Of a stretch of 64,000 nucleotides of DNA, positions 13,499 to 55,672 are shown piece by piece. Source of the stretch: a virus (Duplodnaviria > Caudoviricetes); the IMG/VR virus record IMGVR_UViG_3300014204_013734, positions 288,001 through 352,000 of that record. The stretch is one strand, 5' to 3'. Below the pieces are notes generated by a model. It was not told where the DNA came from. It saw only the letters and a program-made list of their open reading frames with translations, and ran no database searches. A program made the position numbers and the translations under genes. The first letter of the stretch is position 1, and each line of letters opens with the position of its first letter.

Positions 13499-13730
13499 AG
13501 TATCGTTGGAAAATGGCGGCGTCATTGTCAAGCTGCATATGGAAGAAGCCTTAAAGATTGATCAGCTCAAGGGTTTGATGGTTCGGTATGGTTGGGACGA
13601 TGGAATCAAGAAAGCGGTAGAAGTGCTTTTCGTAGACATTGAAAAACAGGTTGGCAAAGAAATCCAGGAAGCACTTCACCGAAGCGTCCTTGACGGGACG
13701 ATCTCGTTTGACAGGAAAGACATTCCATGA
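13491..13730 (+). CDS. Hypothetical protein
   Basis: Short ORF overlapping both neighbours. Confidence 0.55.
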   Translation: MSEVSLENGGVIVKLHMEEALKIDQLKGLMVRYGWDDGIKKAVEVLFVDIEKQVGKEIQEALHRSVLDGTISFDRKDIP

Positions 13731-14461
13731 ATACCATTCCTGACGAATTGAAGGATTGGTTCAAGACATTGATTTCTCCCCCGGATGCCGAAGCCTTCAT
13801 CATTTCCAATTTGGAATCTGTTGACTTAGCTTCATGGCCCGATGAAAGCCATGTCGGGCTAATCGTCAGAGGGACCCCGACCGAAGCGCAATCCAAGGAA
13901 TTGCTTAGGGTGTTGAAACCGGGCGGGCACCTGATCTTGATTGCCCCTGACACGGAACCGACCGGGCATACAGGAACTTGCCGGATTGAAGATGCAGGTT
14001 TTGAAATCAGGGATTCCGTCCTGCTGGTGGATAGCCCGGAAGGGTTCTATTATGTCCCGAAGGCATCACGGGCCGAACGGGAAGCCGGGTGTTCAAACAT
14101 AGCCCCGAAACAACGGGATGAGGCTAGGAAAGAAGGAAACCCTGGCGGGGTTCATTCGGTCAGGAACTTTCACCCCACCATAAAACCTTCTGCGCTTATG
14201 GAAAAGCTGTTGGGGGACGGGAAGAATGGTGACAGTCCCATTCTTGACCCTTTCATGGGCAGCGGGTCCACGGGTATCGCCTGTGTCAAGACTGGGCATG
14301 ATTTTGTAGGGATTGACATGGAACCGGATTACGTGGGTATTGCGACGGCCCGTATCCGATATTGGGATGGGGAAACCGGTTTGGTTGAACGGTCCGTCAC
14401 GACGGAACAGGAACCCGAACTTGAAAAAACGGATTCCTTAAATGACATTTTCGGATGGTGA
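13727..14461 (+). CDS. Amino-(N6A/N4C) DNA methyltransferase, SAM-binding (C-terminal) module; catalytic DPPY absent
   Basis: RVLKPGG, FYYVPKASRAERE, NFHPTIKP and ILDPFMGSGSTG motifs; no (D/S/N)PPY. Confidence 0.8.
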   Translation: MNTIPDELKDWFKTLISPPDAEAFIISNLESVDLASWPDESHVGLIVRGTPTEAQSKELLRVLKPGGHLILIAPDTEPTGHTGTCRIEDAGFEIRDSVLLVDSPEGFYYVPKASRAEREAGCSNIAPKQRDEARKEGNPGGVHSVRNFHPTIKPSALMEKLLGDGKNGDSPILDPFMGSGSTGIACVKTGHDFVGIDMEPDYVGIATARIRYWDGETGLVERSVTTEQEPELEKTDSLNDIFGW

Positions 14462-15314: not shown

Positions 15315-15974
15315 ATGGAAAGCAAATCGACGGTTCTAAGTTTAGACGATTTTCTGACCCAGCAAACAACATCCCCCGATACGAAAGCAATGGAACTTGC
15401 TTACAAGACTTCCTGCGAAGATGCCGGCCGTGCCAAACGTGATATGGCCATCAATGAAGGATGGAATACGGTGTGGGGATGTCTGTTTGAAGCATACCTG
15501 AAATTTTCTCGGTTCGTTGTTGAAAGGAGCACTCCTGTTGGAGTAACCCTCTTTGTCCACCGTCAAATGGCGGTCAGGGAAATCCCGGATATCATTGCTT
15601 ACCTAGCCAGAGCCTATTCCGACCCTTCCTGCCGGCAACAGGAAAAACCTGACAACTACGGTTTGCACAAGGCCTTGAATATGGCGACAGCCATAATCAC
15701 CAAAACATCAGCCGCGTCCCAAATGGTTGGGGATCAGTGCATTCTGCCTGGGTGGGACGAACCGGCACAAGCAGTCGTCCAAGCGTTTTCTTCTTTGCGG
15801 CAGCAGATTACGATTACAGGGGCAGGAACGGACGAAGGGTCTACCAGCGTAACCCTCAATGAAAAGTATGTCCTTGATGCCATTCCCATGATGATTGCAC
15901 GTCTTTCTCGCGCCTATGCCTTGCTTTCTAAAGCCGAAGATGTGGTGGAAACGGCTAAAACGGTAACGCCATGA
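15315..15974 (+). CDS. Hypothetical protein with internal duplication
   Basis: Two GW...IPxxIAxLxRAY units. Confidence 0.65.
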   Translation: MESKSTVLSLDDFLTQQTTSPDTKAMELAYKTSCEDAGRAKRDMAINEGWNTVWGCLFEAYLKFSRFVVERSTPVGVTLFVHRQMAVREIPDIIAYLARAYSDPSCRQQEKPDNYGLHKALNMATAIITKTSAASQMVGDQCILPGWDEPAQAVVQAFSSLRQQITITGAGTDEGSTSVTLNEKYVLDAIPMMIARLSRAYALLSKAEDVVETAKTVTP

Positions 15975-17731
15975 ATGGTGAATTTCCGTCTGTTTTTGAG
16001 CATCCTTTGAAGGTAATTCACCTGTTCGCCGGAGCTGGGGGCGGTATCCTGGGGGACTTGATCCTTGGTCACGAATGTGTTGCTGCCGTAGAGATTGAAC
16101 CCTTCTGCCAACGGGTGTTGAAGGAGCGCATTGTGGACGGGGCATTGCCGGATTTCCCCATCCACGATGATGTCAGGACGTTCCAAGGCAAACCGTGGAA
16201 GGGTAAGATTGACATGATTTCAGGGGGCTTCCCCTGCACCAATATTTCCTTGGCAGGAAAAGGGGAAGGGCTTTCGGGACCACAAAGCGGACTCTGGTTT
16301 GAATTTGCACGGATCATTTCCGAAGCGGAACCCAAGTTCGTGTGGATTGAAAACGTTCCAGCCCTTCGGGGCCGCGGATTAACCGTCGTGCTCGGAAACC
16401 TCCATGACCTGGGCTACAACGCCCGGTGGGGGGTTATGTCCGCTGCTGATGCCGGAGCTCCGCATCTTCGCAAACGTTTTTGGATACTGGCGTGGCGTCA
16501 AGGGGTCGGGAAAGTGTCCGGCGAACCTGCCGCAAAATGGGATTCAAAGGCGAAGTCATGGAGGATCATCCGATCTTTTGATGGGACATCAATCTCTTAT
16601 GGAGAAGCCTTTCCGGTTTGGGGGGTGATGCGTAACGGTGGATTATTCCATCCGCCAATTCCGGAATTCGGTGCTTTCAACGGTGTTTCCTGGCCAACCC
16701 CGAGGTCCGGTAAGGTTTCGGACGAAAACGCAGAATCCTGGATGAAACGGCATGAGGAAGGCAAGGTGTCAACCCCGCCATTGGCTTTGGCCGTGAAGAT
16801 GGCAGACGGGAAAGAACCCTTTCCAACCCCGACGAAGTCCATGGCGACCGTACAGGACATGGAACAGGCAAGGTTTGCGGGAAACGATCCGAAGCGTCCG
16901 AAATACGCGGATGCCTTGAATTCATTTCCGACCCCTAGAGCAACCGATGCCGACCGGGGCGGTAGGGGAGACTTGATCCAGGCAGTTCGGGGGAACGCCA
17001 ATTCCCATCATAGTTCGTGGCCAACCCCTCGGGCGTCCCAAGGGGGTCCTGATTTCGCCCGGGAAGACCGGCCGGAATCAGGTGGTGACGATCTGGCAAC
17101 TGCAGTAGCCCGCGAGGAATTCGGGACGCCTACCGCCAACATGAAGGAAGCATCTGATTCTGAAACATGGCCAACGCCAACGTCTCGTGATTGGCGTTCG
17201 GGAAAAGCAAGTCAGGCTACTTTAAACAAGAATAGCCGTCCCTTGAGTGAAATTGTTGAAAAGCGACTCCAGGAAGAAGCATCCGATCCTTCAAGTTGGC
17301 CAACCCCGCGGGCATGTTCCGCCATTGCGGCGACTTTGACGGAAAACAACCTAGACCCCAGATTATTTCCGAACCTGGAAACTGTGGTGACAAGGTCCGA
17401 CCCGAAAAACATGCTCGGCGGGCAACTTAACCCTGATTGGGTAGAATGGCTGATGGGTTGGCCTATTGGATGGACCAACCTGGACCCCCTGAACATGGAA
17501 TGGTTTGAAATGTGGAAAAAGGGGACAGGTCCTTGGACGCAAGGGGGTTGGTGGGACGAAGACCCGTCCAAGACCGGTTTCGCTCCCAGGGTCGCTAGGG
17601 ATGTTTCGGATCGTGTCCGACGGTTGGCGGCACTTGGCAACGGACAGGTTCCGGCGACCGTTGCCTTGGCTTGGATCACGCTTGCAACAATGCAGGAATC
17701 CACGGATTTAGACACTTTTTTCGGGTGGTAA
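15971..17731 (+). CDS. C5-cytosine DNA methyltransferase with seven (W/F)PTP-type repeats
   Basis: LFAGAGG, GGFPC, ENV, HLRKR and LGNGQV motifs; LNPDWVEWLMG. Confidence 0.9.
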   Translation: MNGEFPSVFEHPLKVIHLFAGAGGGILGDLILGHECVAAVEIEPFCQRVLKERIVDGALPDFPIHDDVRTFQGKPWKGKIDMISGGFPCTNISLAGKGEGLSGPQSGLWFEFARIISEAEPKFVWIENVPALRGRGLTVVLGNLHDLGYNARWGVMSAADAGAPHLRKRFWILAWRQGVGKVSGEPAAKWDSKAKSWRIIRSFDGTSISYGEAFPVWGVMRNGGLFHPPIPEFGAFNGVSWPTPRSGKVSDENAESWMKRHEEGKVSTPPLALAVKMADGKEPFPTPTKSMATVQDMEQARFAGNDPKRPKYADALNSFPTPRATDADRGGRGDLIQAVRGNANSHHSSWPTPRASQGGPDFAREDRPESGGDDLATAVAREEFGTPTANMKEASDSETWPTPTSRDWRSGKASQATLNKNSRPLSEIVEKRLQEEASDPSSWPTPRACSAIAATLTENNLDPRLFPNLETVVTRSDPKNMLGGQLNPDWVEWLMGWPIGWTNLDPLNMEWFEMWKKGTGPWTQGGWWDEDPSKTGFAPRVARDVSDRVRRLAALGNGQVPATVALAWITLATMQESTDLDTFFGW

Positions 17732-17734: not shown

Positions 17735-18322
17735 ATGAAACAAGAAGAAATTTATAAGGCTATGCGGGCTAGGTTTGCAACGGTTCTGGACGGATTCGTC
17801 GGTCAACGTTTGGAACCCCGTACCGTGCGTCAGATCAAACAAACCCTACAGGCTACTCTTTCCAGGATGATTGACGAAGGTCTTATTAACTTCCCCGTAC
17901 CAAATTGGCAACTGCGTGTGTACGAAAATGAAGGAAGCCTGGAAATCGTTTTTGGGGATCCAGATGAAAACCTACCGAAGAAAGGAACGGAGATGTTTTT
18001 GGACGAATACCAAGACAAGGCAAAAGTCACGGCTTTTTATCCTCGCAGATGGGCTAACCTGAATTATCCGACACTTGGACTGTGCGGGGAAGCTGGGGAA
18101 TTCGCCAACAAGGTGAAGAAGATTGAACGGGATCATGGGGGTGTTCTGACCGACGCTGTTCGGCAAGCCCTCAAAGAAGAACTGGGAGACGTGCTTTGGT
18201 ACGTGGCCATGTGCGCTGATGAACTTGGGCTTACTTTGTCGGATGTAGCGGAAACCAACGTGGCCAAGTTAGCATCCCGATTGGCACGGGATCAGATCAA
18301 GGGTGAAGGGGACCAGAGATGA
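17735..18322 (+). CDS. MazG-like NTP pyrophosphohydrolase with N-terminal extra domain
   Basis: GLCGEAGE...EELGDVLWY...NVAKL. Confidence 0.85.
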   Translation: MKQEEIYKAMRARFATVLDGFVGQRLEPRTVRQIKQTLQATLSRMIDEGLINFPVPNWQLRVYENEGSLEIVFGDPDENLPKKGTEMFLDEYQDKAKVTAFYPRRWANLNYPTLGLCGEAGEFANKVKKIERDHGGVLTDAVRQALKEELGDVLWYVAMCADELGLTLSDVAETNVAKLASRLARDQIKGEGDQR

Positions 18323-18984
18323 AAAAACCTTATCAACACATTAAGGTGCAGAAATTTTTGGATGACCAAAGTCAACGCCTGGAAACGGGGGCGGTTTGTG
18401 TAAATTTGGACTGGCCAGGTTTATTTATCCGGGGGGATAGTTGTCATGGATTCCTGATGCGTATTTTGGAACATCTTCAATGTGTTCTTGAAGGAGGAAA
18501 TGCAATTATGACCTGTCAACCTTTGTTGGAACTGGTTCATTTGCTGGACTCTCCAGTGCACTACGGGCCTGAATATGGACAATACGTTTCGCGTTTTTTG
18601 GAAGAACTGGACAATCGTTTTTCAATGTCCGATGACCCTAAGAAACCCTTGTATGATCCAAAAAGGGTGTCGGAAAGGGCTTTGTCGGAATTGGAAGCTA
18701 AGTTCAGGGAAGCCCTTTCAGGTATGCTTGATAAGACCTGGAATAACGCTTCCGAAGAAGAACTGAACGACTTTCTTAAGAAAGTCGTCATTGAATTCAT
18801 TGATAAGGATTTCCTTCCTTGGTGGTCTCTTCCAACAATCAAATGGGAAGTTGTAGCTTCTGAAGGATGGTCTTCTTTGAAATTCAATTTCCGCATACCG
18901 GGGAAATCTGACAAATTCTTCATTCAACCTTTCAAAAAGGAAAAAGACGGAAATGACCACGGAAGAGTTGGGACCCCATGTTAG
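18319..18984 (+). CDS. Hypothetical protein
   Basis: ATGA-coupled ORF; DWPGLFIRGD motif. Confidence 0.6.
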   Translation: MKKPYQHIKVQKFLDDQSQRLETGAVCVNLDWPGLFIRGDSCHGFLMRILEHLQCVLEGGNAIMTCQPLLELVHLLDSPVHYGPEYGQYVSRFLEELDNRFSMSDDPKKPLYDPKRVSERALSELEAKFREALSGMLDKTWNNASEEELNDFLKKVVIEFIDKDFLPWWSLPTIKWEVVASEGWSSLKFNFRIPGKSDKFFIQPFKKEKDGNDHGRVGTPC

Positions 18985-19256
18985 AAACCGGGGCATGTTT
19001 GATTTCCAGGACCGGCATGCGGTTAACCCAGGTTCCGAAGATAGATTGCACTACTTCCATCAAAGCTGGGAAAACGATTGGACGCGTCCACGTATGGCTT
19101 CTGGAAAATGCCGTTCTGCAGGCGGAAGCTTTGAATGACGAATGGGTGTCATCCATGTTTTCAAAGTGGGAAGCAAAACGGTTGACTGATGCCGATGTGG
19201 AAACCTTAAACGATTGGTTGTTTGATCCTGAATTTGGACAAGGAAACAGGGCATGA
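18978..19256 (+). CDS. Hypothetical protein
   Basis: 92-aa ORF overlapping both neighbours. Confidence 0.55.
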   Translation: MLETGACLISRTGMRLTQVPKIDCTTSIKAGKTIGRVHVWLLENAVLQAEALNDEWVSSMFSKWEAKRLTDADVETLNDWLFDPEFGQGNRA

Positions 19257-20503
19257 CACAGAAACTCGTCCTCAGACTCGGCAATTGTGTCGAAGTTATG
19301 CGGACTTTAGAGGAGGGAAGTGTAGGGGGGGTCGTAACTGACCCCCCCTACTAGTTGAATGGGATATCGTTCATGGGTAGAAAATGGGACACCGTGGATG
19401 AAAACAATACGCCAGTTCAGGAAGATTCGTCCAATGATGTTGAGCCAGAAGGGGTGTTCCTGGAACATGTCCATGCGCAGCAGGCATGGCACCTAGCCTG
19501 GCTCAAGGAAGCGTTCCGCGTCCTGAAGCCGGGCGGGGTCATTAAAGCATTCAGTGCGACCCGAACATTCCACAGGCTTGTTGCCGCCATGCAGGAAGCT
19601 GGTTTTGTTGATGTCAGGCTTCAAGCTTGGGTCTACGGATGTCTGTCGGAAGACACTGAAATTTTGGTCCGTCAGGGTAGTAGGGAAGAATGGATCCGGT
19701 ATCCGGGAGATGAAGCTATTCAGGGTTTGGAAACGCTTTGTTTTGATATGACAACAGGTCTGCGGTGGGAACGTATCCTTGAAGGGTTTTCCTATGACTA
19801 CGACGATATTGCTTTTCATCTAAAGGGTCCCCGTACTGACCAATTGGTATCAAAGAACCATAGGTGTTTGTTGATGGGGGCCGAAGGCAAGATGCAATTT
19901 GAATTGGCGGAAAATCTTCCTTCGTCCGTGATCATTCCTATCATTCCGGATTGGGTGCAACCGGTGCAGGAAGGGGATAACATCCTGTGGGGTGTAGCGG
20001 ACGTGAAACCCGTGTATTATACGGGTACCGTCTGGTGCGTGAAAGTTCCTACGGGGGCGTTCGTAGCCCGTAGGAATGGGAAAATCTTCATCACCGGGAA
20101 CAGTGGGTTTCCAAAATCATTAAGCATTTCTAAGGCTTTGGACAAGAAACAAGACAATGATCTTAAACGGGAAGTACGAAGAGCCGCAGTAGCAGCAGTT
20201 CAAGAAGCCGGGTTGTTTCTGCCGTCCAATTCTTTGTGGGATTGGACGGTTGGCGAACATGGTCCTGGGGATACATGGTGGAAAAAGTTTCAAGAAACAC
20301 TCCCAGGGCTTACGGACGAAAACAGAGAAAAGATTGAAGGTGCTATTGTGGCTACGGTTCAGAAAACAGCGGGTTGGTTTACTAGGAAGGATATTTACGA
20401 AGTACGGGCCCCTGCTTCTGCGAATTCTAAAAAGTGGTCCAAATACGGAACGGCCGTGAAACCGGCTTGGGAATCCATCGTCGTTGGGAGGAAACCGGAA
20501 TGA
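19253..20503 (+). CDS. Amino-MTase catalytic (N-terminal) module with in-frame TAG at 19352-19354 and a mini-intein
   Basis: ATG 19253 (ATGA overlap) reads GNCVEVM...VTDPPY*LNGISFMGRKWD; RVLKPGG; WVYG|SGFPKS; ends KPAWESIVVGRKPE with no FxGxG motif. Confidence 0.8.
19640..20101 (+). mobile_element. Mini-intein (154 aa, no endonuclease)
   Basis: CLSEDTEIL start, SKNHR block B, VWCVKVPTGAFVARRNG...TGN|S end. Confidence 0.88.
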
Positions 20504-20889
20504 GCAAGTCCATGACCGAAACTGAAATTTGCCGCAAGATTGCTCTTTATGACCCTGAAATCAATCTTCCAGTACGGTGTCTTGAGTTGAATCTCAGCGT
20601 CTTGGCAAATGCCTTTTGGCGGATAGAATGCTACAACAACGCTGTCGTGGCAATAAGTGCTTGCCATGATACAATGGTTTTGCTCCGTGAACTGCTTTCC
20701 GATGATTTCCTGGAAAGGTCTCCCGAAGGGGTTGATCTGCTTTGGGGGGCTTCTTTGGTGGAATGTACGACCATTCCCGAAGGCCAAATCTGGATGATCG
20801 GGGATCAGGAATCCCCTGCGGCTGTTACCTTCATCCAATTCAGTAATCCGAGGGAAGAAACTCTCGGGCTGTCGTATTCATTGAACTGA
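20500..20889 (+). CDS. Hypothetical protein
   Basis: ATGA-coupled ORF. Confidence 0.55.
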   Translation: MSKSMTETEICRKIALYDPEINLPVRCLELNLSVLANAFWRIECYNNAVVAISACHDTMVLLRELLSDDFLERSPEGVDLLWGASLVECTTIPEGQIWMIGDQESPAAVTFIQFSNPREETLGLSYSLN

Positions 20890-22609: not shown

Positions 22610-24005
22610 TCAACTTCTTCCCCACCAAAAGGAAGCAGTAGCGAAGCTTTCCGGGACACGCATCGGTGCCCTTTTCATGGAAATGGGCACTGGGAAAACA
22701 AGGACCACCATAGAACTGGTTTCCTTGCGGCAAGAACGGATTGATCGTTGCGTTTGGTTCTGCCCTGTTTCCTTGAAAACCACAATTGCCGCTGAAATAC
22801 GGAAACACACCAACGCGGTAGATTCCGACATTCACGTTTTTGACCATCGAACATCTAAGCGGGATATGCCCGATGCGCAATGGTACGTGATCGGCATTGA
22901 AAGCATGAGCAAGTCGATGCGTATTATTTTCGCCGCAAGTGCCCTCATCACTGAAAAAACTTTTGTTGTGGTTGATGAATCCAGTTACATCAAAGGATAC
23001 AGTTCTTTGAGAACGCGGAGGTTAACTGCTCTTGCTGAACAAGCTCAGTACAGATTGATTCTTACGGGAACTCCAATCAGCCAGGGTGTCGTCGACCTAT
23101 TTGCACAGATGCGGTTTCTTTCACCTAAAATCCTTGGCTATCGCAGTTTCTTTAGTTTCGCTGCCAACCATCTTGAATATTCAAAAAAGTATCCAGGCAT
23201 GATCGTGCGCAGCCACAACCTTGACTACCTTGCTGCCAAGATCAAACCGTACGTTTATCAGGTGACGAAGAAGGAATGCCTCACGTTGCCGCCGAAATTG
23301 CACGAATCCTATTACTTCGATATGACCGGGCGGCAAACGGAAGCCTATGACCGAGCCAAATGTGAATTACTGATGGATATCCCTGATGAAGAAGTTACGT
23401 CATGGGTGATTTTCAAGTTGTTTTCGGCTTTGCAGTCCATCACATGTGGGTTTTGGAATCGTCGTACCCCTGAGGGCATTGTTGAAGAACGTTATCCCCA
23501 TGGAAGAATCAAACTTCTTATGGACGTAGTCAATAGGATTCCGAAAGACGAAAAGGTCATCGTTTGGGCCAAGTATCATTATGATATTGAAGGGATTGTT
23601 TTGGATTTGGAAAACCGATGGGGACCGGGATCTTGTGCGGTTTACACGGGCAAGAAGTCCGAACGGGAACGGGTAGAGGAAATTTCTAAATTCAGGAATG
23701 ATGCCCGCTTTTTCGTTGCTACGCCATCGGCCGGAGGGCATGGGTTGACCTTGAACGAAGCTCACCATGTCGTCTTTTACAACAATGGATTCAAGTTTTC
23801 GGAACGTCTCCAGGCCGAAGACCGCTGTCATCGTATCGGGCAGGGATGTCCGGTTACGTATGTGGATATTCTGTGTTCAGGATCAATAGACGAACGCATC
23901 AAAGAAGCCTTGGACGCAAAAGAAAACGTGGTTGACAGATTCAAAAGGGAATTGGATATGGTCAAGCGTTCGGGTATACGTAAAAGGTTGCTGGAAATTC
24001 TCTGA
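22590..24005 (+). CDS. SNF2-family helicase (second copy)
   Basis: MEMGTGKT, DESS, LTGTP, GLTL and QAEDRCHRIGQ motifs. Confidence 0.92.
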   Translation: MNLRTTSQLLPHQKEAVAKLSGTRIGALFMEMGTGKTRTTIELVSLRQERIDRCVWFCPVSLKTTIAAEIRKHTNAVDSDIHVFDHRTSKRDMPDAQWYVIGIESMSKSMRIIFAASALITEKTFVVVDESSYIKGYSSLRTRRLTALAEQAQYRLILTGTPISQGVVDLFAQMRFLSPKILGYRSFFSFAANHLEYSKKYPGMIVRSHNLDYLAAKIKPYVYQVTKKECLTLPPKLHESYYFDMTGRQTEAYDRAKCELLMDIPDEEVTSWVIFKLFSALQSITCGFWNRRTPEGIVEERYPHGRIKLLMDVVNRIPKDEKVIVWAKYHYDIEGIVLDLENRWGPGSCAVYTGKKSERERVEEISKFRNDARFFVATPSAGGHGLTLNEAHHVVFYNNGFKFSERLQAEDRCHRIGQGCPVTYVDILCSGSIDERIKEALDAKENVVDRFKRELDMVKRSGIRKRLLEIL

Positions 24006-24018
24006 ATCGGAAAAGGAT

Positions 24019-24681
24019 GTGGCATTGGGCAAAATTTTCCTTTACGGGGACAGTTGGGAACGGTATCCGATTACGGAAGGGGCAGAATGGACGGACCCCG
24101 GCACCGGATCCGTGGTTGCCGTGTCTGACATCCGCAATCCCCTGCCGAAGTTTATGGTTGGGGCGGAAATGGTCTATTCCGACCCTCCCTGGGACCTGAA
24201 CAACATCAATGCCTTCCTTACGAAAGCGGGAAGGGCTGATTACGTTGACAGATTTCCTTCCTTCTTGGACGTTTTCTTCAACCGACTCAGGGAAATTCAC
24301 CCGAAGGTGTGTTACCTTGAAATGGGGGTAAAAAACGCAGCTTTGGTCAGGGAACATTTGAAACAGGATTTTGCTTCCGTTCAGGAATGGCCCATTCTGT
24401 ATTACCGCAAGCATCCGTGCTTCCTGTTCAGGGGAGGACCGACACCGGTAGAAATGGACTTTTCCGGCCTGGACGACTCGGAAACCCCGTTCACGGCGAT
24501 CATTTCCGAATGTCCGGTATCGGTAGCCGACTTGTGCACCGGAAGGGGTCTGACAGCCGTAGCAGCATTCAAGGCGAACGTTAGGTTCTTCGGCACTGAA
24601 ATCAACCGGCGCCGTTTGGCCGTGGCCTTGGACAGGGTGAATAGGATAGGGGGGGCCTATGCGCCGCGTCCAATTCCTTAA
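24019..24681 (+). CDS. Small amino-methyltransferase-like protein
   Basis: YSDPPW catalytic-like motif and DLCTGRG SAM-binding motif; start is GTG 24019 or TTG 24025. Confidence 0.7.
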   Translation: MALGKIFLYGDSWERYPITEGAEWTDPGTGSVVAVSDIRNPLPKFMVGAEMVYSDPPWDLNNINAFLTKAGRADYVDRFPSFLDVFFNRLREIHPKVCYLEMGVKNAALVREHLKQDFASVQEWPILYYRKHPCFLFRGGPTPVEMDFSGLDDSETPFTAIISECPVSVADLCTGRGLTAVAAFKANVRFFGTEINRRRLAVALDRVNRIGGAYAPRPIP

Positions 24682-42242: not shown

Positions 42243-42883
42243 TGAAGCGTGGCAAATTTATTGTCCTTGAAGGGATAGACGGTTCCGGGAAGACTTCCCA
42301 AATGAAGTTGCTTGTTGGCCGTCTGAAAGCTACAGGGCGGCAAGTCGTAAGCACGGCAGAACCTTCAACGGGTCCGATTGGGGCGTTACTTCGGTTAGCT
42401 TTGTCCAAGCGAATCGTCCGACCGAACAAAGTCAGTGGTTCCGTACCCTTGACTTCCGATACGTTAGCTTTGTTGTTCACGGCCGACCGGATGGACCATT
42501 TGGCATCATTCATTGATCCTGCCCTTGCCGAAGGGAAGGATGTAGTCTGTGACAGGTATGCTTTGGGCACGTTGGCTTACCAATCATGGTCTGATGAGGA
42601 CCAGGGATGGATCAAGGGACTCAACTTACGTGCCCAGCACCCAGACATGACCATCTTTCTATCGCTTCCCGTGGAAATGGCCTTGAAGAGAATATCCGGA
42701 CGGGGAAATCTGGATATATTTGAAAATCAGGAAGTTTTGGAACGGGTCGTCTTGAACTTCCGAACCGCCCTATCCGATGCTATGGCGGACGGGCAGGAAA
42801 TAGCGGTCGTGAATGGAACCGATCCTGTGGAAACGGTTGCTGACAACGTTTGGTGGAATGTTGAGAGGATTCTCCAACCATGA
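42242..42883 (+). CDS. tmk: Thymidylate kinase
   Basis: EGIDGSGKT, LLFTADR and CDRY...AYQ motifs. Confidence 0.93.
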   Translation: MKRGKFIVLEGIDGSGKTSQMKLLVGRLKATGRQVVSTAEPSTGPIGALLRLALSKRIVRPNKVSGSVPLTSDTLALLFTADRMDHLASFIDPALAEGKDVVCDRYALGTLAYQSWSDEDQGWIKGLNLRAQHPDMTIFLSLPVEMALKRISGRGNLDIFENQEVLERVVLNFRTALSDAMADGQEIAVVNGTDPVETVADNVWWNVERILQP

Positions 42884-44082
42884 AAGTTGAAACCGTTTTT
42901 GCGCCCGTCGGCGATGACCCCCCGAAGGCAACCCTTCTTTATGGGGCTGATGTCAGGGATACCTTAAAAACGATCCCTGACAAGTCCGTACAGGTTATTT
43001 GTACTTCGCCCCCTTACTGGGGTCTCCGTGATTACGGGGTTCAGCCAACGATCTGGGGTGGGGACGAAAAATGTGACCACGATTGGGAAGAAACGTTTTG
43101 CCGTAAGTGTGGTGCTTGGATGGGAACCTTGGGTCAGGAACCACATCCCAAGGACTTTGCCGCCCATGTCGTGGAAATCATGGAAGAAGCCCGCCGAGTC
43201 CTTCGAGATGATGGCACACTTTGGCTTAACCTTGGTGATACCTATGCGGCGAACAAATCCTGTCAAGTTCCTTCTACCAAATGGGGGGCTGCGGCCCCGC
43301 AACTTGCCGGAAAAATGTCCGTTCCAGAAGGATTCAAACCAAAGGATCTTGTCGGTGTTCCTTGGAGGGTTGCCTTTGCCCTTCAGGACAAGGGTTGGTG
43401 GTTAAGATCTGATATCATTTGGTCAAAACCAAATGGGCTCCCGGAATCGGTCACGGATCGTCCGACTAAAGCCCACGAATACGTTTTTCTGTTCACAAAA
43501 AAACCGCATTATTTTTACGATCCGGAAGCCATTCGGGAACGCCAAAACGATTCATCCGGGCACAGCCGTCGATCAGTTTGGCCTGTTTTAACACAACCTT
43601 TTGAAGGGGCACACTTCGCTACATGGCCACCCGACCTCGTTCGTTTGATGGTGAAGGCCGGGTCAAGTGAAAAAGGATGCTGCCCGACATGCGGGGCTCC
43701 GTGGAAACGGGTTGTAAGGAGAGGTGAAGAACCTGAATTCCGGTATTTGAATACCAAGGCAGAACGTGACGCAAACCAAGTGCCCAACCAACCTGTTAAA
43801 AAGAGACTGCCACAAAAAATCAAGACACGAAACACCTTGGGATGGGAACCTACTTGCAACTGCCCAGCAGCAGATCCTGTCCGTTGTGCCGTTATGGACA
43901 TCTTTTCAGGGTCTGGAACCACCGGGATGGTAGCACTTCAAGAAAACCGAAATTACATAGGGATTGACCTAAACGAACAGTACTTGGAAATGGCGAAGGC
44001 ACGAATCACAGGGGAACGTGCACCTTCTAAATCTTCTGACCAAAGCAACGGTGTTCTGGACCTGTTTTCGGAAAAACCATGA
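42880..44082 (+). CDS. Beta-class amino (N4C/N6A) DNA methyltransferase, intact
   Basis: TSPPYW, IIWSKPN, HFATWP and DIFSGSGTT motifs. Confidence 0.92.
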   Translation: MKVETVFAPVGDDPPKATLLYGADVRDTLKTIPDKSVQVICTSPPYWGLRDYGVQPTIWGGDEKCDHDWEETFCRKCGAWMGTLGQEPHPKDFAAHVVEIMEEARRVLRDDGTLWLNLGDTYAANKSCQVPSTKWGAAAPQLAGKMSVPEGFKPKDLVGVPWRVAFALQDKGWWLRSDIIWSKPNGLPESVTDRPTKAHEYVFLFTKKPHYFYDPEAIRERQNDSSGHSRRSVWPVLTQPFEGAHFATWPPDLVRLMVKAGSSEKGCCPTCGAPWKRVVRRGEEPEFRYLNTKAERDANQVPNQPVKKRLPQKIKTRNTLGWEPTCNCPAADPVRCAVMDIFSGSGTTGMVALQENRNYIGIDLNEQYLEMAKARITGERAPSKSSDQSNGVLDLFSEKP

Positions 44083-49025: not shown

Positions 49026-51074
49026 ATGCCTAGCTTTATCAAAACCCCTGCCGACGAAAAACTTTGGGACCGTGCAAAACAACTTGCCGAAGAGCAAGGT
49101 CACAAGGAAGATTGGCCTTACGTGACCGGCATCTATAAGCGGATGCACGGCGGCAAAGTAGCCTTCTCCCAAGAAGACTTCAAAGAAGACCTCAAGAACT
49201 TAGCTTCCTTCATAGCTTCCAAAACGGGTCTGAAAGATTGGGAAATTGAAAACGACAGGATCAATTTCCGCGTTTCGGACAAGAATTTCACCATGGTCGT
49301 TGAAAGTTCAAAGATCAAAAAACTTTCTTATCTTGTGGATGGTATTTACCTCCGGATGGTTTTCAGCCAGGGGTTTAAACATCCTTTCTTTAATATCCTA
49401 GTGAGAACTTTGTTTGAAAAAAAATTCTATCAAACCCCTACCCCTCGTGAAGCAAAGCAGGAAAAGACTTCCTTTGAAGGCATCACCGATTCTGAATACG
49501 CAAAACTTCATGACAGTGCCCTCAAGGCAGGAAACGCCGCCATGAAGGCTGTGACCGAATGGCTCCAAACAGACAAAGGGAATGAAGAAAAGTTTGCCCT
49601 CTTGAAAAAGAAGTTTGCTTCTTTTTTGACAAAATGGGGGACAGGGGACAAGATCGGGAATGTGTCCAACGTTGTAGTCATGTCCAGGAATTATCAGGCT
49701 GGCCTCGCCAATCCCGTTGAAATAGGGGTTGTTCTCAACAAAGCGGAAATCAGGAAGGCATTTGAAGACGATAAACCTTGGCCTACCATCAGACTTTTCC
49801 AACTGGTGTGGAAGAACAAGGACACTGGGGAAATCAAGAAATCCACCTTAGCTGAAACCCCCAATATGCTGTATCGGTTGTCCAAACGAACGAACGTGTT
49901 TGATGAACCTGTAAAGGCCATCAAAGAATTCAACGTTGACATCGTCGGGGCCTGGTTGGAAAACCTCGGGTACACGGACGGCAAAGAACAAGGTCTGAAC
50001 GCTTTCAAGAAGACTTTCGGGTCGTCCTTCACATCTTCAAAATCATCAGCGGTCCTTTCCACCTGGTCAGACATTCCTGGGTTAGTTGGTCAAAAGCTGG
50101 TCAAGGTTTCACCCCCGCCGTTGGATCCTGATTGCGGGACGACGTTGACGTTTGAAGATGGCACGGAAGTGTTTGTCCACACGGATGCCTGTCATGGCAT
50201 GACAGAAGAAGAACGCATCATGTGGGATTCGGCCCAAGATGACTGGTACGGGATGAAAGAAGAACTCGGTGCAAAGAAAGCCTGCTGGATCAACGACCCC
50301 TGGGATATGTCCAAACTCGTCGGGGCGAAGGTTGTGTCCCTGGATAATGCCGTTCCCGAAGGGGTTGTCATCCGATTTGACAACGGGGTTGAAGTCAGGG
50401 CACATTTTGACGGGGTACGGAAGACCGCAAGAGGCAAATCCAGATATCAGTTTGAAAAAGGTGTAGCAGAAGGCAAGAAACTTCCAAGCACCGAAGAAGA
50501 ATTTAAACATCGGCAGAACGTGGCCCGGCGGGTCCTAAAACTGGTGAAATCCGACGAAGCAATTCTGGTCAAGTTCATTGCTGATCCGGGACAGGATCCG
50601 AAAATAGTCAAACACATCCTATCGGAGATTGACAACATAGCCTTCGCGCTTGGAGTCATTCAGGGAATGGCCTCAGTCTGGAGGTCGGCTTCCATGGCCA
50701 GGAAAGGGTCAGATCTGATCTGGGATAGGTTTGACGAAGGCGTGGAAAGTGCACAAGTGGTTTCAAGGTCGGAATTTGAGTATCAACGGAAAGTGGCCAA
50801 GATGTTTCTTAAGCTGTTCAGGGAAAAACTTGCTACCCTCAGCAGTCACATTGCAGACCCGGAAGAAGAACCCATGATTGCGTTGCAGTTCTTGGACGCC
50901 GCTTCCGATTTGGCATATTTTCTTGGAGATCTTCACGGGATGACACGGAAGGTGAAGATGGCGAAATCTATCCGTAAAGTAGCCCAGGAATGGGAAGCTT
51001 TGCGCACCCACCCCTTGACTGTACGGGAGATTGCTATCAAATGGATGGAAAGAAACCTGTGGAGAATGACATGA
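49026..51074 (+). CDS. Mosaic multi-module protein with two internal duplications (putative virion cargo polyprotein)
   Basis: GGAGG RBS; modules joined by KVAF/KKAC/KTAR/KMAK; C-terminal KVAQEW and EIAIKW tags. Confidence 0.75.
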   Translation: MPSFIKTPADEKLWDRAKQLAEEQGHKEDWPYVTGIYKRMHGGKVAFSQEDFKEDLKNLASFIASKTGLKDWEIENDRINFRVSDKNFTMVVESSKIKKLSYLVDGIYLRMVFSQGFKHPFFNILVRTLFEKKFYQTPTPREAKQEKTSFEGITDSEYAKLHDSALKAGNAAMKAVTEWLQTDKGNEEKFALLKKKFASFLTKWGTGDKIGNVSNVVVMSRNYQAGLANPVEIGVVLNKAEIRKAFEDDKPWPTIRLFQLVWKNKDTGEIKKSTLAETPNMLYRLSKRTNVFDEPVKAIKEFNVDIVGAWLENLGYTDGKEQGLNAFKKTFGSSFTSSKSSAVLSTWSDIPGLVGQKLVKVSPPPLDPDCGTTLTFEDGTEVFVHTDACHGMTEEERIMWDSAQDDWYGMKEELGAKKACWINDPWDMSKLVGAKVVSLDNAVPEGVVIRFDNGVEVRAHFDGVRKTARGKSRYQFEKGVAEGKKLPSTEEEFKHRQNVARRVLKLVKSDEAILVKFIADPGQDPKIVKHILSEIDNIAFALGVIQGMASVWRSASMARKGSDLIWDRFDEGVESAQVVSRSEFEYQRKVAKMFLKLFREKLATLSSHIADPEEEPMIALQFLDAASDLAYFLGDLHGMTRKVKMAKSIRKVAQEWEALRTHPLTVREIAIKWMERNLWRMT

Positions 51075-52213
51075 CGAACACATCAAAGAAAATAGGCACG
51101 GAAAAGATTCCCGGCGGTTTAGCCAAAGGAATGAAACCTTCCGACTTTGACCCTGCCGCTTTGGCCAAAGGAACTAGGGTCGAAATGGAACACACGGATG
51201 ACCCTGCCATAGCTAAAGAAATCGCATCCGATCATCTTACTGAAGACCAACGTTACTACGATAAATTGGAGCAAATGGAGAAGAAAGCAGTCAACAAAGT
51301 AGCTGATAAATGGCTGCAAAAGATGGCGGCCGAAGTCGGCACCGACACGGCAACCATTTGGGCCCTTGCCCCTGAAAGTCTTGCACGTCTGTTCAGGAAC
51401 AATGGTTGGATGGGTTTGTTTCACAAAACGTACACCAACAAGCAAGGTTCTGAAATTGACTTTTCCTTGCTGGATCAGGGTATCCGGGAACATGGGGGAG
51501 CGGTGTTCCTTACCGGTGGGGACGGCATCTACGACATAACCATCCCGACACAAGCAGGGGAAATGCCTATCGTCAGGGAAGATGGGTTCCTGCCCCCTTA
51601 CGGGACACCAACTTACGGTGAAGACAAAACGGTTCAAAAAGAATCCTTGCGTGATGCCTTGGCAGCTTACGCCCATGACACTTGGAGCCGATGGGTACGG
51701 TACCAATTCACTATCGGGAAAAAAAACCTAGACGGCAGCTTTACGATTCCGCCAGACAAAGTGGCCCGGTGGGACCGTCAAATGAACACCCCATTCGACG
51801 AATTACCGCCGGATGAAACCCCTTCAGATTACGAGGAAGCCGATAAGATATTGGCCATCCTATACCGCCCCAAAACAGGGTTCAACAGGTCAGCACAGAT
51901 GACTTGGCGTGTAGACCAAGCCAAACTAAGGTCCAAGCTCCCGTCCCTTGTCAAGGCCGTGACGGACATGATCAACAAGGCTAAAATCCCGTTTGATCTT
52001 CTCCAGAAAACGACCTTCTTCCGGGAACTGGCGCCGGAACATCTTCCCCAGGAACGGTTGGAAAACACCGTATGGGTGAAGGGTAATGGGGTGTTCCCCC
52101 AAGGGGAGGATTCCGAAGTCCTGTTTGACTATTTCATGCAAGTCTGTGCGGCCATCAACGAAGAGCTCCTTGAAAAGGGTGTCATTGGCCCGAAGACACG
52201 GAGAGACCGATGA
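51071..52213 (+). CDS. Multi-module protein with N-terminal DUF5661-like domain
   Basis: GGLA...KGTRVEMEHT...EIASDHLTE..YY; KVADKWLQKMA tag; ATGA overlap. Confidence 0.75.
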   Translation: MTNTSKKIGTEKIPGGLAKGMKPSDFDPAALAKGTRVEMEHTDDPAIAKEIASDHLTEDQRYYDKLEQMEKKAVNKVADKWLQKMAAEVGTDTATIWALAPESLARLFRNNGWMGLFHKTYTNKQGSEIDFSLLDQGIREHGGAVFLTGGDGIYDITIPTQAGEMPIVREDGFLPPYGTPTYGEDKTVQKESLRDALAAYAHDTWSRWVRYQFTIGKKNLDGSFTIPPDKVARWDRQMNTPFDELPPDETPSDYEEADKILAILYRPKTGFNRSAQMTWRVDQAKLRSKLPSLVKAVTDMINKAKIPFDLLQKTTFFRELAPEHLPQERLENTVWVKGNGVFPQGEDSEVLFDYFMQVCAAINEELLEKGVIGPKTRRDR

Positions 52214-52422
52214 AGAAGTGGTGGATCACCGGGGACACCTATGATATCCAGGATTCAATCAAACGAGCTTTTCGGGGCACTTGGTTTGACAAAGCCCGGA
52301 AAGGTTGGGTGATTGAAAAGGATTCCCCGAAAAGCATCCTACAATTCTTGGAAGGATTCCCCCGGCAACATTTGACCGTCCTGGACGAAGACGGAAAGCC
52401 CATCAGTTTGTCCAAATACTGA
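52210..52422 (+). CDS. Small hypothetical protein (TYDIQDSIK...WFD...KGW)
   Basis: ATGA-coupled ORF. Confidence 0.55.
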   Translation: MKKWWITGDTYDIQDSIKRAFRGTWFDKARKGWVIEKDSPKSILQFLEGFPRQHLTVLDEDGKPISLSKY

Positions 52423-52430
52423 AATCCTGA

Positions 52431-52763
52431 TTACAGGTTGAAGAGTCCCTTGATTTTCTTGACGTATGCCTGGGGGTCGGGTTTGCGTGACGGTTCTCGG
52501 TAAGGGTTCAAACTTGCCCAATTTGCCCCTTCCATAAAAGCGTAGACGAATCGTTCCAAGGTTTCCAAACCCTCTTCGTTGAGTGCCTCATCCTTCTGGA
52601 TTTCAAATTTCAAAACCTCATCATCAGAAAGGGTAACGTGAAACACGCACCCTTTCGTTAGTTCGGGCCACCGTTTCTTGAATGCTTTTACGGCAGCTTT
52701 CCCCCATTCAGGCCATTCCGCAGATTTGGTTTTGTTGGTCGCCGACCAGGAGAAGCAGGTCAT
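52431..52763 (-). CDS. Hypothetical protein
   Basis: Last gene of the minus-strand cluster. Confidence 0.6.
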   Translation of the reverse strand: MTCFSWSATNKTKSAEWPEWGKAAVKAFKKRWPELTKGCVFHVTLSDDEVLKFEIQKDEALNEEGLETLERFVYAFMEGANWASLNPYREPSRKPDPQAYVKKIKGLFNL

Positions 52764-52769
52764 GCGATT

Positions 52770-52946
52770 TCATTCCTGCCCGTCATTATCCCAATTTCCG
52801 CAACCAAAATCGGTTGCCTTGACCGGTGTCGGGTTTTTTTGATCTTCTTTTCCTGGTTCTTGTCCTTTGTAAGGGCACCATCCGTTAACGTCATTTTCGG
52901 AAAAGATGAACGCAAGACACGTTCCGCAAGTTTTTTCAGAATTCAT
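52770..52946 (-). CDS. Small 4-Cys protein (58 aa; below the ORF-track cut-off)
   Basis: Hand translation MNSEKTCGTC...GWC...FGCGNW; GAGGAGG RBS. Confidence 0.6.
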   Translation of the reverse strand: MNSEKTCGTCLAFIFSENDVNGWCPYKGQEPGKEDQKNPTPVKATDFGCGNWDNDGQE

Positions 52947-52961
52947 GTTCCTTCCTCCTCT

Positions 52962-53726
52962 TTAAGCGATTTTGAACAGCATCCGGATGCGATCAGGATC
53001 AATCACGATTCCGGCAGTCTTGGCGGCATCCCCGGCTTCCTTGCCAACCTTCAAATCAGGCAAGGCTTCCGGTGAGATTTGGTAACGTGTGTACAAACCG
53101 ATTGGCAACATAGCCCTAATTACATCCTTCGCGGCAGACTTCGGTTTCTTCCGATTCGTCCAGGGAGAAGATTTTTCCAACACCTTTTCCCCGAGCTTGA
53201 CCCCATCAAGGTAAATGGCGCCGGGTTGGGGGGAACGGGGATCGTCGGGACGGGCAGCTCCAACATACACCTTGACCCCTTTGACGGGCACTCCGTTCAC
53301 CTTGAGGGGTTCCCAAACGGGATCAGGAAGGTCCGAACGGTCGTCCCAACTGTCTTTTGACCCGCTGTCTTGGAGAACGCGCCGGAACTGTTCCTGGATT
53401 TCCTGGATGGCTACCGCCGCATCCTGGATTGTCATGTCGGCATGTCCGGCGTCCAGGGTCGCTTGGGCAATGTCCTGAATGAAATGAGGGCTTTTCGCCA
53501 TCAGATCTTCCAGCTTCCGTTCGGACCGTTCAACCAGGGCCTTGTATTGGAACCCTGCCCAAACAAGGACGTGGACCAGATCGTCCCCGTACACCTGCCG
53601 GTCGCTGGCTTTGCCCCGTTCAACGCCCTTCTTGCGGACGACTACGGATACCAAGGTTCCTTGACCGGAATCCCCGATTTCCGAAAGTGTTCCGGCAAGT
53701 CCTGAATGCAATGCGTTCGTTTCCAT
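52962..53726 (-). CDS. Hypothetical protein
   Basis: 254-aa ORF with GAGG RBS. Confidence 0.7.
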   Translation of the reverse strand: METNALHSGLAGTLSEIGDSGQGTLVSVVVRKKGVERGKASDRQVYGDDLVHVLVWAGFQYKALVERSERKLEDLMAKSPHFIQDIAQATLDAGHADMTIQDAAVAIQEIQEQFRRVLQDSGSKDSWDDRSDLPDPVWEPLKVNGVPVKGVKVYVGAARPDDPRSPQPGAIYLDGVKLGEKVLEKSSPWTNRKKPKSAAKDVIRAMLPIGLYTRYQISPEALPDLKVGKEAGDAAKTAGIVIDPDRIRMLFKIA

Positions 53727-53744
53727 TTTTTCACCTCGTGAAAG

Positions 53745-54440
53745 TCACTTCTGACCACCTGTTTCCAGACGGGCAACTTGTTCCAAACCTATTTTGATTC
53801 GTTCCTCTTCTTTGCCAGGGGCACACACAACTACCCAATCCCAATCGTTGTCACACCAAGCAAACGCTGCCGCCCGGTCCGTCGTCGTGAACATCGGAAT
53901 GTTAAGAACCGGGTCCGTTATGACCCGGTAGCAGATGAACTGTTTGCCGTCCGGGCGTTCCCATACGGAATGGGTTATCTTGACATGCAAGGCTTTTGTC
54001 CCGGTATCCAGAGAAACCAAGAACCTAGCCGAATGGAGATGGGCTTGCCCATTTTCATCCTTGACAGCCATTGTCCAAAACCGGTTGACGGGCCAAGCCC
54101 CTTCTTTCATCAAACGGATTTTGGTTTCAATGCGGTTTTCCTTGACTTTATTATCCTGCTTGTCGAACCACATTTGTTCAACGCAGGATTGCTTGTTTCT
54201 GCATGCCCGGATCACGACGGACATGATCGGAGGCCAAAACAGGATCATAGCCAAAAACACCAGTAGGTGTTTCCACCATATAGGGGGTTCTGACGATATT
54301 TCATCAGATAGCAGCCGTTGCATATCCAACACGTAAGCCGGATTTCTAATCGCAGCCGCGATTTCCATCAGGATAAATAGAACCAGGGTCAGTGCCCCCA
54401 ACCCAACCCATGCAATCAATGCCGTCGACAAAAAACTCAT
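53745..54440 (-). CDS. Membrane protein (two N-terminal TM segments)
   Basis: GGAGG RBS before ATG 54440; hydrophobic stretches. Confidence 0.65.
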   Translation of the reverse strand: MSFLSTALIAWVGLGALTLVLFILMEIAAAIRNPAYVLDMQRLLSDEISSEPPIWWKHLLVFLAMILFWPPIMSVVIRACRNKQSCVEQMWFDKQDNKVKENRIETKIRLMKEGAWPVNRFWTMAVKDENGQAHLHSARFLVSLDTGTKALHVKITHSVWERPDGKQFICYRVITDPVLNIPMFTTTDRAAAFAWCDNDWDWVVVCAPGKEEERIKIGLEQVARLETGGQK

Positions 54441-54485
54441 GTGCAACCTCCAGTAAGAACCCCTTCTTTCAATACCCAAAACAGT

Positions 54486-54689
54486 TCAGATATCTTCGTC
54501 CTGATCTGTATCTTCCTGATCCGTTTCTTCTTCTTCCAGAAGTTCCTCAGATTCGTCTTCCATTTCTCGTTCCCGTGTGGCTTCCCTTAGACGCCGTGCT
54601 GTCGTTTCGTGGGGGCCGGCCTTGCGTCGTTTTGAAGGAACAACGTAAGGATTCCGGGGCTTTGAAGTGGGAACGTGAAGTCGCTTCAT
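54486..54689 (-). CDS. Small protein with basic N-terminus (KPRNPY...RKAGPH) and acidic tail
   Basis: ATGA-coupled to the NYN gene. Confidence 0.6.
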   Translation of the reverse strand: MKRLHVPTSKPRNPYVVPSKRRKAGPHETTARRLREATREREMEDESEELLEEEETDQEDTDQDEDI

Positions 54690-55591
54690 GAAGGAATTCC
54701 TTCATCAGAGTCACTCTTTGTTTCTTCAACGGCAGGTTCTGCATATTCCGTCGGCGGTGTCGGCGGCGCATCCGAATGTTCGGTTTTGGAAATAAAAACC
54801 AGGTTCTTTCCGGTAGGGGTTTCCTGGATTTCCACAATCCCCTTAAGCTGGAGCCGGTGGAGGGTTGCAATCCTCTTTTGACCGTCCCTTAGACGGCCGT
54901 TGGCAAAAACCCATTTGGATATGAAGTACCCAACACTTACAAAGGGAAATCTGGCCATTGCATTCTTCAACTCTGAAATAAAGATTTTTTCGTCCAAGGC
55001 GTTTTGCTCTGCTTCATCAAGCGTTTCCGTTTCAGGTCGGAAAATAATCTGTGCGGGTTCAAATGCGGCCGCTTGTCCTTTAACAGCTTCTTCCAAGGCG
55101 AGACAACCGTAAGCCGCCTGCCTGATTCTTGCGGACGTACCGTTTGCCCAAACGGCAGCCCATCCGGTTTTTCCAAAGATACGGATGGCATCCAACGCTG
55201 GAGCCATGTCAGCATCTCCCGACACGACAATGGCGGCATCATAGAGGTCCAACGCAGCCATTCTGACGATGTCGGCCACCATGGTCGTGTCAACTTCCTT
55301 TTCCACAACCTTTTCGTGAGCTTTCCCACATTCCGGGCACCACACGGTGCCTGTTTTCAGTGGAAATCTGCTGACAAAGAACCCTTCCAGCTTTTCCATG
55401 TCGTCTAAAGACACATCAATGCCCGTTCCGGGCACCGTTCCCAGGTAGTATCGGGCTTCGACCAACCGGGTCCCTCCAATTTTCTTTACGAGAAAATCCG
55501 CTAATTGAGCCCAGTCCAGTAAACCCCCATGCACTTCGCCTTTGCTAAGATGATGGAAATTTTGTCCATCGATGAAAATGGCGACTCTCAT
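54686..55591 (-). CDS. NYN (LabA/DUF88, PIN-like) ribonuclease with CxxC insert and possible C-terminal wHTH
   Basis: IFIDGQN, EKEVDT and VSGDADM motifs. Confidence 0.88.
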   Translation of the reverse strand: MRVAIFIDGQNFHHLSKGEVHGGLLDWAQLADFLVKKIGGTRLVEARYYLGTVPGTGIDVSLDDMEKLEGFFVSRFPLKTGTVWCPECGKAHEKVVEKEVDTTMVADIVRMAALDLYDAAIVVSGDADMAPALDAIRIFGKTGWAAVWANGTSARIRQAAYGCLALEEAVKGQAAAFEPAQIIFRPETETLDEAEQNALDEKIFISELKNAMARFPFVSVGYFISKWVFANGRLRDGQKRIATLHRLQLKGIVEIQETPTGKNLVFISKTEHSDAPPTPPTEYAEPAVEETKSDSDEGIPS

Positions 55592-55644
55592 TAGAAACCG
55601 TTCCTTTCTTAATTAAGACTAAAAACCAATCTTTCCCGCCTAAA

Positions 55645-55672
55645 CTACCCGAAACCATCTCGTTCCAAGCCG
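55645..55672 (-). promoter_or_regulatory. Bipartite motif CGGCTTGGAA-N12-GGGTAG
   Basis: One of six copies; divergent pair with 55684-55711. Confidence 0.8.

Follow-up and report, generated by a model that had tools for sequence, protein, structure and literature searches.

Here, we have examined an interrupted gene in a 64-kb stretch of phage DNA (the window, bases 288001-352000 of the 381-kb IMG/VR record IMGVR_UViG_3300014204_013734). The gene is predicted to encode the N-terminal half of a beta-class N6/N4 DNA methyltransferase, and its reading frame is broken by an in-frame TAG directly after the codons of the catalytic motif DPPY. A perfect 12-bp hairpin ends on the last of these codons, and coding resumes nine nucleotides later. 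Comparison with relatives, in which the break recurs, suggests that ribosomes may well cross the gap by a programmed hop that is aided by refolding of the upstream hairpin; we regard this as evenly poised for the window's copy and as somewhat more probable for the family as a whole. Slightly more tentative is the wider proposal that, in a large natural family of phage methyltransferase genes, very short hops (3-17 nt) carry ribosomes across a stop codon at a fixed site after DPPY, and that in a subset of members, the window included, the 3' arm of the hairpin inside the ribosome supplies the pull.

The interrupted gene and its relatives

On the forward strand, the ATG at 19253 opens 33 codons, MTQKLVLRLGNCVEVMRTLEEGSVGGVVTDPPY, which run from MTQKL to VVTDPPY and carry the N-terminal strand and catalytic motif IV (DPPY). 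They are followed by TAG at 19352-19354, which closes the upstream reading frame (19253-19354). After TAG come TTG AAT and then GGG ATA TCG TTC ATG GGT, where GISFMGRKWD is read in the same frame; the frame resumed at GGG spans 19361-20503, about 380 codons through ...VVGRKPE to its stop, and encodes the remainder of the methyltransferase N-terminal half. Translated in one frame, the break reads ...SVGGVVTDPPY*LNGISFMGRKWD. The hairpin occupies 19322-19351, with the 5' arm GTAGGGGGGGTC at 19322-19333, the loop gtaact at 19334-19339 and the 3' arm GACCCCCCCTAC at 19340-19351, the last being the Asp-Pro-Pro-Tyr codons themselves. Reading, translating and folding the sequence confirm the original prediction of an in-frame TAG directly after the catalytic DPPY, next to a perfect 12-bp hairpin. 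The accompanying claim that homologues read DPPYG(I/L)xFMG is also right, as the intact controls (n=120) have exactly 9 nt between the Tyr and Phe codons.

The break region is base-for-base identical in three other assemblies (a 444-kb ENA contig and two JGI metagenomes), and the same DNA is present in Logan contigs from three runs of two studies (landfill, groundwater); one low-depth Logan run has a contig break at 19283-19323. Identical DNA in four assemblies and in the contigs of three runs rules out an assembly error, to which the interruption might have been put down.

That the gene encodes part of a methyltransferase is suggested by profile and homology matches. The product read across the break, in which motif IV DPPY is present, matches the PF01555 (N6_N4_Mtase) profile at positions 4-82 only (E-value 2.7e-5; 24.7 bits, for a cut-off of 26.7), and its homologues at 1e-60 to 1e-88 carry PF01555.

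A protein search for close relatives in IMG/VR found none, the nearest being ~45-55% identical, so that the 9-nt insert is not traceable through close kin. Among the best 120 homologues, 11 start exactly at the Met of FMGKxWD. When six contigs of relatives were fetched and inspected together with the window, a stop codon lay 0-1 codon past DPPY at all seven loci; each of the six has an open reading frame (ORF) of 34-50 codons, after which the methyltransferase resumes a few bases on, in any of the three frames. Pattern scans of IMG/VR and JGI metagenomes gave at least 121 distinct interrupted junctions, and all counts out of 121 below are among the matches listed. The inserts start with a stop codon, are 3-17 nt long and come either directly or one codon after DPPY. 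A scan run without asking for a stop still gave a frame-0 stop at this exact place in 24 of its 25 non-intact junctions; where intact genes departed from the usual spacing, they did so by clean in-frame insertions of 1-8 residues that separate the DPPY and FMG motifs.

Many divergent relatives carry both the stop and the hairpin, a combination that was originally suggested as one to look for in related phages; the finding that would have spoken against it, a lack of both in the relatives, was not made. In a tree built from 238 sequences that flank the junction, interruption requires at least 23 changes, compared with ~74 when the labels are shuffled, and nearly all of the window's nearest relatives in the sample are interrupted. 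The interrupted state is inherited, yet it has been gained or lost many times.

Both parts of the broken gene appear to be maintained. The median ratio of nonsynonymous to synonymous substitutions (dN/dS) between interrupted genes is 0.38, and for the short upstream frame alone it is 0.33. In a clade whose two Gly codons enclose a gap of 9 nt, dN/dS is 0.04-0.07 at dS of 0.2-0.5. The gap drifts within this clade (TAGTACCAT, TAGCACCAT, TAGTACCAC, TAGTATCAT) without loss of the stop or of either Gly codon, and Leu is spelled CTT, TTG or CTG by turns. These substitution patterns indicate that both reading frames are under purifying selection and that the interrupted genes, as a class, are not pseudogenes.

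A few junctions break the rules, namely those of L060 (8278 region), L359, L354, L331 and L367. L060 has a TTAG insert with a frame-0 stop three codons on, and L359 has GAC in place of the Gly landing codon. These may be decayed sites or sequencing errors. One metagenome contig (L351) carries two interrupted methyltransferase paralogues, at 112-144 and 1609-1641, with the different gaps GGT TA GGT and GGC TGAAT GGC, both with an upstream hairpin.

Codon signature, hairpin and the proposed hop

The codons that flank the gap are related to each other. Among the 72 listed junctions in which Gly, Glu or Leu precedes the stop, the triplet just before resumption shares its first two bases with the codon before the stop in 62, and the matched pairs sit at the canonical spacing of the protein. 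Examples are GGC TGAAT GGC, GGT TAGCATACCAC GGA, GAG TAATAATACCT GAG and CTT TAGTG CTC. Two of the forms found, GGT TAG GGC and GGT TGA GGC, are exactly those of the laboratory stop-hop, in which 9 nt are read as one amino acid. The stop follows Tyr directly, as in the window, in 48 distinct listed junctions. Here the landing triplets end in C or T in 46 of 48 and are N-A-Y in 37 of 48; counted as distinct inserts (among them TGAC, TAAC, TAAT, TGAAC, TGAAT, TAGCTCAC and TAGTTGAAT), 11 of 14 end in AY (binomial p = 3e-8). For the tRNA-Tyr anticodon GUA to pair at two of three bases, a landing triplet of the form NAY would be needed. The window's AAT (19358-19360) fits this pattern, as it would pair with tRNA-Tyr at two of its three positions.

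Some gaps of 11 nt have a further feature. They share a word such as (A/T)ACC(A/T) or ATCA, placed 1-2 bases before the landing codon (TAGCATACCAC, TGACCATACCT, TAATAATACCT). The junctions with this word (L013, L015/L028, L042, L045, L294, L305, L329, L353, L356 and L369) are mostly without an upstream hairpin, and the word may be a second kind of signal.

The hairpin of the window is among the most stable in the family sample. It has 12 perfect pairs, and its 111-nt context has a z of -3.1 against dinucleotide shuffles. The minimum free energy (MFE) of the 33-nt segment holding it is -26.1 kcal/mol, compared with a mean of -10.5 for 200 synonymous-codon shuffles, none of which is as stable (z = -4.9). 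As this stability is far above that of the synonymous shuffles, the hairpin is made by codon choice; it is also aided by a Gly where relatives mostly have Ala or Ser. Besides the window, at least seven other lineages, with arms of differing sequence, owe the hairpin to codon choice. For the 33 nt up to the Tyr codon, the mean MFE is -10.2 in interrupted genes and -5.1 in 143 intact ones (Mann-Whitney p = 0.001). When 103 distinct upstream sequences were compared by the size of the shift, z was below -2 in 70% of those with shifts of 6-8 nt (mean MFE -15) and in 11% of those with shifts of 3-5 nt, and shifts of at least 13 nt had a weak helix. The hairpin is linked to gaps of 6-10 nt.

Covariation was examined in 46 junctions with 5-10-nt shifts, picked regardless of folding. 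Among the window's 12 pairs, those that involve the wobble bases of the Asp, first Pro and Tyr codons change in a compensatory way, GGG...CCC, for instance, alternating with AGC...CCT, and the covariation score is above that of 500 of 500 shuffles and of all slid controls. Since the sequences are related, we take the covariation as supportive and not as conclusive. A second candidate hairpin 3' of the landing site (19368-19400) was rejected, as its z is -0.5 against synonymous shuffles and interrupted and intact genes are alike there.

How the hairpin could take part in a hop is suggested by the geometry of the junction. We argue that the ribosome would arrive with the Tyr codon TAC (19349-19351), which is the last sense codon and is proposed for take-off, in the P site and with the slowly decoded TAG in the A site. 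The 3' arm of the hairpin would then be inside the ribosome, in the E site and the exit channel, and the 5' arm would be just out of the mRNA exit. With the arms so placed, formation of the stem needs an advance of the mRNA by about the observed distance, and refolding at the mRNA exit could draw the mRNA forward. Peptidyl-tRNA-Tyr would release TAC and re-pair at the proposed landing triplet AAT through its second and third positions, thereby passing over the coding gap TAG TTG AAT (19352-19360). Decoding would restart at GGG and give a single polypeptide with the canonical junction ...DPPYGISFMG....

Origin of the gap and alternative explanations

The breaks in relatives are associated with homing-endonuclease-like genes. 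Endonuclease-like ORFs lie directly upstream, on either strand, in 18 of 66 interrupted genes that have enough flanking sequence and in none of 114 intact genes (Fisher p = 2.7e-9). They include L367:167-1306, L058:2033-2869, L018:7927-8532, L045:13067-13864 and L010:1597-2883, among others, and are of LAGLIDADG (L367), HNH or endonuclease VII-like, and Vsr/MTES_1575-like types. Annotations of their clusters include the PHROG terms 'homing endonuclease' and 'HNH endonuclease', and the matches to Vsr/MTES_1575 are weak. In L010-L012, a LAGLIDADG gene is also found upstream of the interrupted gene. By analogy with the T4 mobA/gene 60 cassette, the gap probably began as an insertion that shielded the site from a homing endonuclease.

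Three ways past the TAG had originally been offered, namely readthrough, a 9-nt hop, and termination followed by restart. The comparative evidence favours the hop and speaks against the other two as general mechanisms. If the ribosome terminated at TAG, it would release a 33-residue DPPY peptide and restart at TTG 19355 or ATG 19373, and the peptide would join the methyltransferase's other parts, each encoded separately, by non-covalent assembly. The window offers some grounds for this: TTG adjoins TAG in the resumed frame, the enzyme is already in pieces (the N-terminal half at 19253-20503 and the S-adenosylmethionine (SAM) module at 13727-14461), and gene callers give two ORFs at the locus in all assemblies. 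Across the family, however, the three codons that link the landing triplet to the conserved Phe-Met remain protein-coding in many synonymous spellings (10 codon pairs for Leu-Glu, 9 for Ile-Ser and 10 for Leu-Ser). ATG, GTG or TTG in the resumed frame precedes these G-x-x-F codons in only 3 of 121 junctions, a stop in that frame lies just upstream of them in 21, and Shine-Dalgarno-like cores are present in 7. That these codons are kept coding where a start is nearly never present argues against restart as a general mechanism; were translation to restart at the conserved Met, the preceding codons would go untranslated and be free to drift. Restart would also leave the hairpin and the matched or near-matched triplets without a role, and the window's TTG has no Shine-Dalgarno sequence ahead of it and sits at the foot of the 12-bp helix. 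On balance, we consider restart unlikely.

Readthrough of TAG by a near-cognate or suppressor tRNA would yield DPPY-X-Leu-Asn-GISFMG, with three extra residues at the catalytic loop. The gap is in frame with one stop, and the family tolerates the in-frame insertions of 1-8 residues described above; yet the spacing of 6 residues that would result from readthrough is seen in none of the sampled intact genes. The lengths of the inserts leave a remainder of 1, 2 or 0 on division by three in 55, 48 and 18 of the 121 junctions, respectively, and several in-frame gaps have two stops (TGA AGC TGA in L010 and TAG TCA CTC TAA in L040). As gaps occur in all frames with no in-frame excess, in-frame ones being under-represented, and as some hold two stops, readthrough is not the general mechanism. 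Nor does the genome appear equipped for it. Its 35 tRNA genes include tRNA-Tyr(GTA), three tRNA-Pro and two tRNA-Gly genes, and a phage suppressor tRNA, which had been suggested as a thing to look for, is not among them. TAG terminates 65 of 527 long ORFs of the 381-kb genome, in line with the earlier claim that it is an ordinary stop elsewhere; genome-wide recoding of TAG is rejected. We therefore regard readthrough at the window's junction as quite improbable. Simple +1 frameshifting was rejected as a general mechanism, as inserts of 5-17 nt exist and some resumed frames have a stop just upstream (L024); it is further disfavoured by the 4-nt inserts, which always end in C or T.

It is also conceivable, at a similarly low level of probability, that the gene is dead or dying, inactivated either by the break or by the mutation of a once functional GGN-TGAAT-GGN hop site to TAC-TAG-T-TGAAT-GGG. 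A fully matched landing codon is missing from the window junction, four extra bases precede the common gap word TGAAT there, and the genome has another complete N6/N4 methyltransferase (42880-44082). Against decay, the downstream frame of 382 codons is fully open, intein included, Tyr take-off with an xAY landing triplet forms a large class, interrupted genes as a class show the signs of purifying selection given above, and the window's hairpin ranks near the top of the family in stability. A switch at the DNA level, in which the G7/C7 runs change length or the palindrome forms a cruciform to turn the gene on and off, is hardly credible. Although homopolymer runs of seven and a perfect palindrome are present, the four assemblies and the contigs of three runs, all of them assembled sequence in which rare length variants at G7/C7 may not show, are identical without indels, so that the suggested phase variation finds no support. 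A change of length in either run would wreck DPPY and would not remove the stop, and relatives keep the helix with quite different sequences that have no homopolymer runs.

Several points weigh against the hop. It is deduced from sequence patterns, and the collections were sampled through such patterns, which biases the frequencies, while kinship among the sequences inflates the counts. The window's landing codon is not fully matched, AAT differing from TAC at position 1. Because the window's gap is in frame and has a single stop, readthrough would also yield a full-length protein; because TTG follows TAG, the window being one of only three of the listed junctions with a canonical start there, restart could operate at this site; and because this enzyme family already has its parts encoded separately, a further split is more probable from the outset. 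In principle, an insertion mechanism could have left the matched Gly, Glu and Leu codons at the gaps as target-site duplications. For the Tyr near-matches, and for Gly pairs that are synonymous and not identical, tRNA pairing would be the easier explanation. The window's gap can be written as TAGT+TGAAT, the second part being the commonest 5-nt gap among the listed junctions; the junction may thus derive from a GGN-TGAAT-GGN site, and could be a decayed one. Finally, the window's neighbouring ORFs (18319-18984, 18978-19256 and 20500-20889) have no Pfam or PHROG match, and a tblastn search of the window with the relatives' endonuclease cluster gave no match. Either the window's copy is an orphan or it has never had a link to an endonuclease.

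Known bypassing systems and genome context

Natural bypassing is known in few places, namely in T4 gene 60 with its homologues, in a single lineage of yeast mitochondria and, as a candidate, in three Streptomyces phage terminases. In T4 gene 60, pairing of the mRNA that leaves the ribosome has been proposed to drive forward bypassing (bioRxiv 10.1101/2024.12.09.627546). This bypass goes together with the MobA homing-endonuclease cassette (bioRxiv 10.1101/2022.08.31.505936 and 10.1101/2024.12.09.627546, with Bonocora et al. 2011 as cited there). In the mobA/gene 60 cassette, the element's own site is protected by the insert. The proposed hop resembles that of gene 60 in that the peptidyl-tRNA would re-pair at a downstream triplet, with a 5' mRNA structure as the proposed driver, and in that the gap lies in a conserved phage enzyme gene with an association, here in relatives, to free-standing homing endonucleases. 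It differs in that the gap has a length of 9 nt, or of 3-17 nt across the family, and not of 50 nt, the host gene encodes a DNA methyltransferase and not a topoisomerase, and the 3' arm of the hairpin includes the take-off region, whereas that of T4 lies 9 nt upstream. Moreover, no A-site stem-loop, Shine-Dalgarno-like GAG or KKYK-type nascent-peptide signal was identified here, the window's landing triplet matches at two of three bases, and the window has no adjacent endonuclease gene.

The large terminase gene of Streptomyces phage phiHau3 has two 10-nt coding gaps, with a related 7-nt one; a 5' stem-loop is the proposed stimulator, and a junction peptide found in E. coli supports bypassing (RNA Biol 2023, PMC10732093). 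Like the methyltransferase junctions, it combines a short gap (~10 nt) in an essential or conserved phage gene with a slow A-site codon and a 5' stem-loop. The trigger there is a rare UUA sense codon, with a proposed regulatory role and only three genes known, whereas here it would be a stop codon, at a site common to more than 100 genes. Synthetic stop-hops in E. coli, in which a stop is bordered by matched codons and 9 nt give one amino acid (Weiss et al. 1987 and O'Connor et al. 1989, cited through PMC5009743), have the same form as family members such as GGT TAG GGC. As portrayed there, they are artificial and of low efficiency and have no stimulators, unlike the sites described here, which are natural and conserved and have a covarying hairpin. 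The same review, of 2016, knew of no natural in-frame stop-hop (PMC5009743). It also describes the 'byps' of Magnusiomyces capitatus mitochondria, many short mobile inserts that are bypassed between matching take-off and landing codons. Short inserts that would be bypassed in translation, with the take-off and landing codons matched (here in relatives), are thus common to both; by that account byps are 27-55 nt long and occupy many sites in many genes of yeast mitochondria, unlike the single site in one phage gene family seen here. Our literature searches for methyltransferase bypassing or natural stop-hops found nothing specific. Relative to known bypassing, what differs is the very short and variable gap, its fixed site after a catalytic motif of a methyltransferase, the hairpin over the take-off region and the number of genes.

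If the proposal is true, the gaps would be immunity scars against homing endonucleases that are rendered harmless by the translation machinery, and short stop-hops would be a recurrent natural mode of decoding and not a laboratory curiosity. It would suggest how selfish nucleases can insert in the codons of a catalytic motif while the host gene survives. The natural variation of the family in take-off codon, gap length and hairpin strength is a ready mutational series, which would inform on the detachment of peptidyl-tRNA, the distance that the mRNA slides and the driving force. The window, with its in-frame 9-nt gap and very stable hairpin, is suited to telling hop, readthrough and restart apart by the mass of one junction peptide. 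Annotation would be affected as well, since these genes are now called as an ORF of 33-50 residues and an N-terminally truncated methyltransferase.

The chain of the interrupted gene ends ...GRKPE, the C-terminus at which all close homologues finish, and does not contain the SAM-binding motif I. A separate gene on the forward strand at 13727-14461 encodes a C-terminal SAM-binding part of an N6/N4 methyltransferase (PF01555 positions 154-219) and is the likely partner of the interrupted half; the layout of an N-terminal half and a SAM-module gene is repeated in the loci of relatives. A weak PF01555 match (positions 185-219) is also found at 23932-24681.

Inside the resumed frame, 19640-20101 (forward strand) is predicted to encode a 154-residue mini-intein, which runs from CLSEDTE to FITGN and is followed by SGFPKS. 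It has an N-terminal Cys (C1), a TxxH block (TDQLVSKNH) and a terminal Asn followed by Ser, and splicing would join WVYG to SGFPKS; it matches no Pfam intein family. The site is occupied, with the same junctions, in 101 of the best 120 homologues, some of whose inteins are ~340-380 residues long and may include a domain of endonuclease type.

With the standard code 11, long ORFs are found throughout the window. A tRNA scan of the window found no tRNA genes, and those of the genome lie outside it in two clusters (49211-59189 and 79208-86477 of the contig labelled G000). At 15971-17731, the window also encodes a C5 cytosine methyltransferase whose Pfam match is limited to residues 13-193, after which comes a repetitive tail of ~390 residues that is rich in Pro, Thr and Trp and has WPTPR/FPTP motifs.

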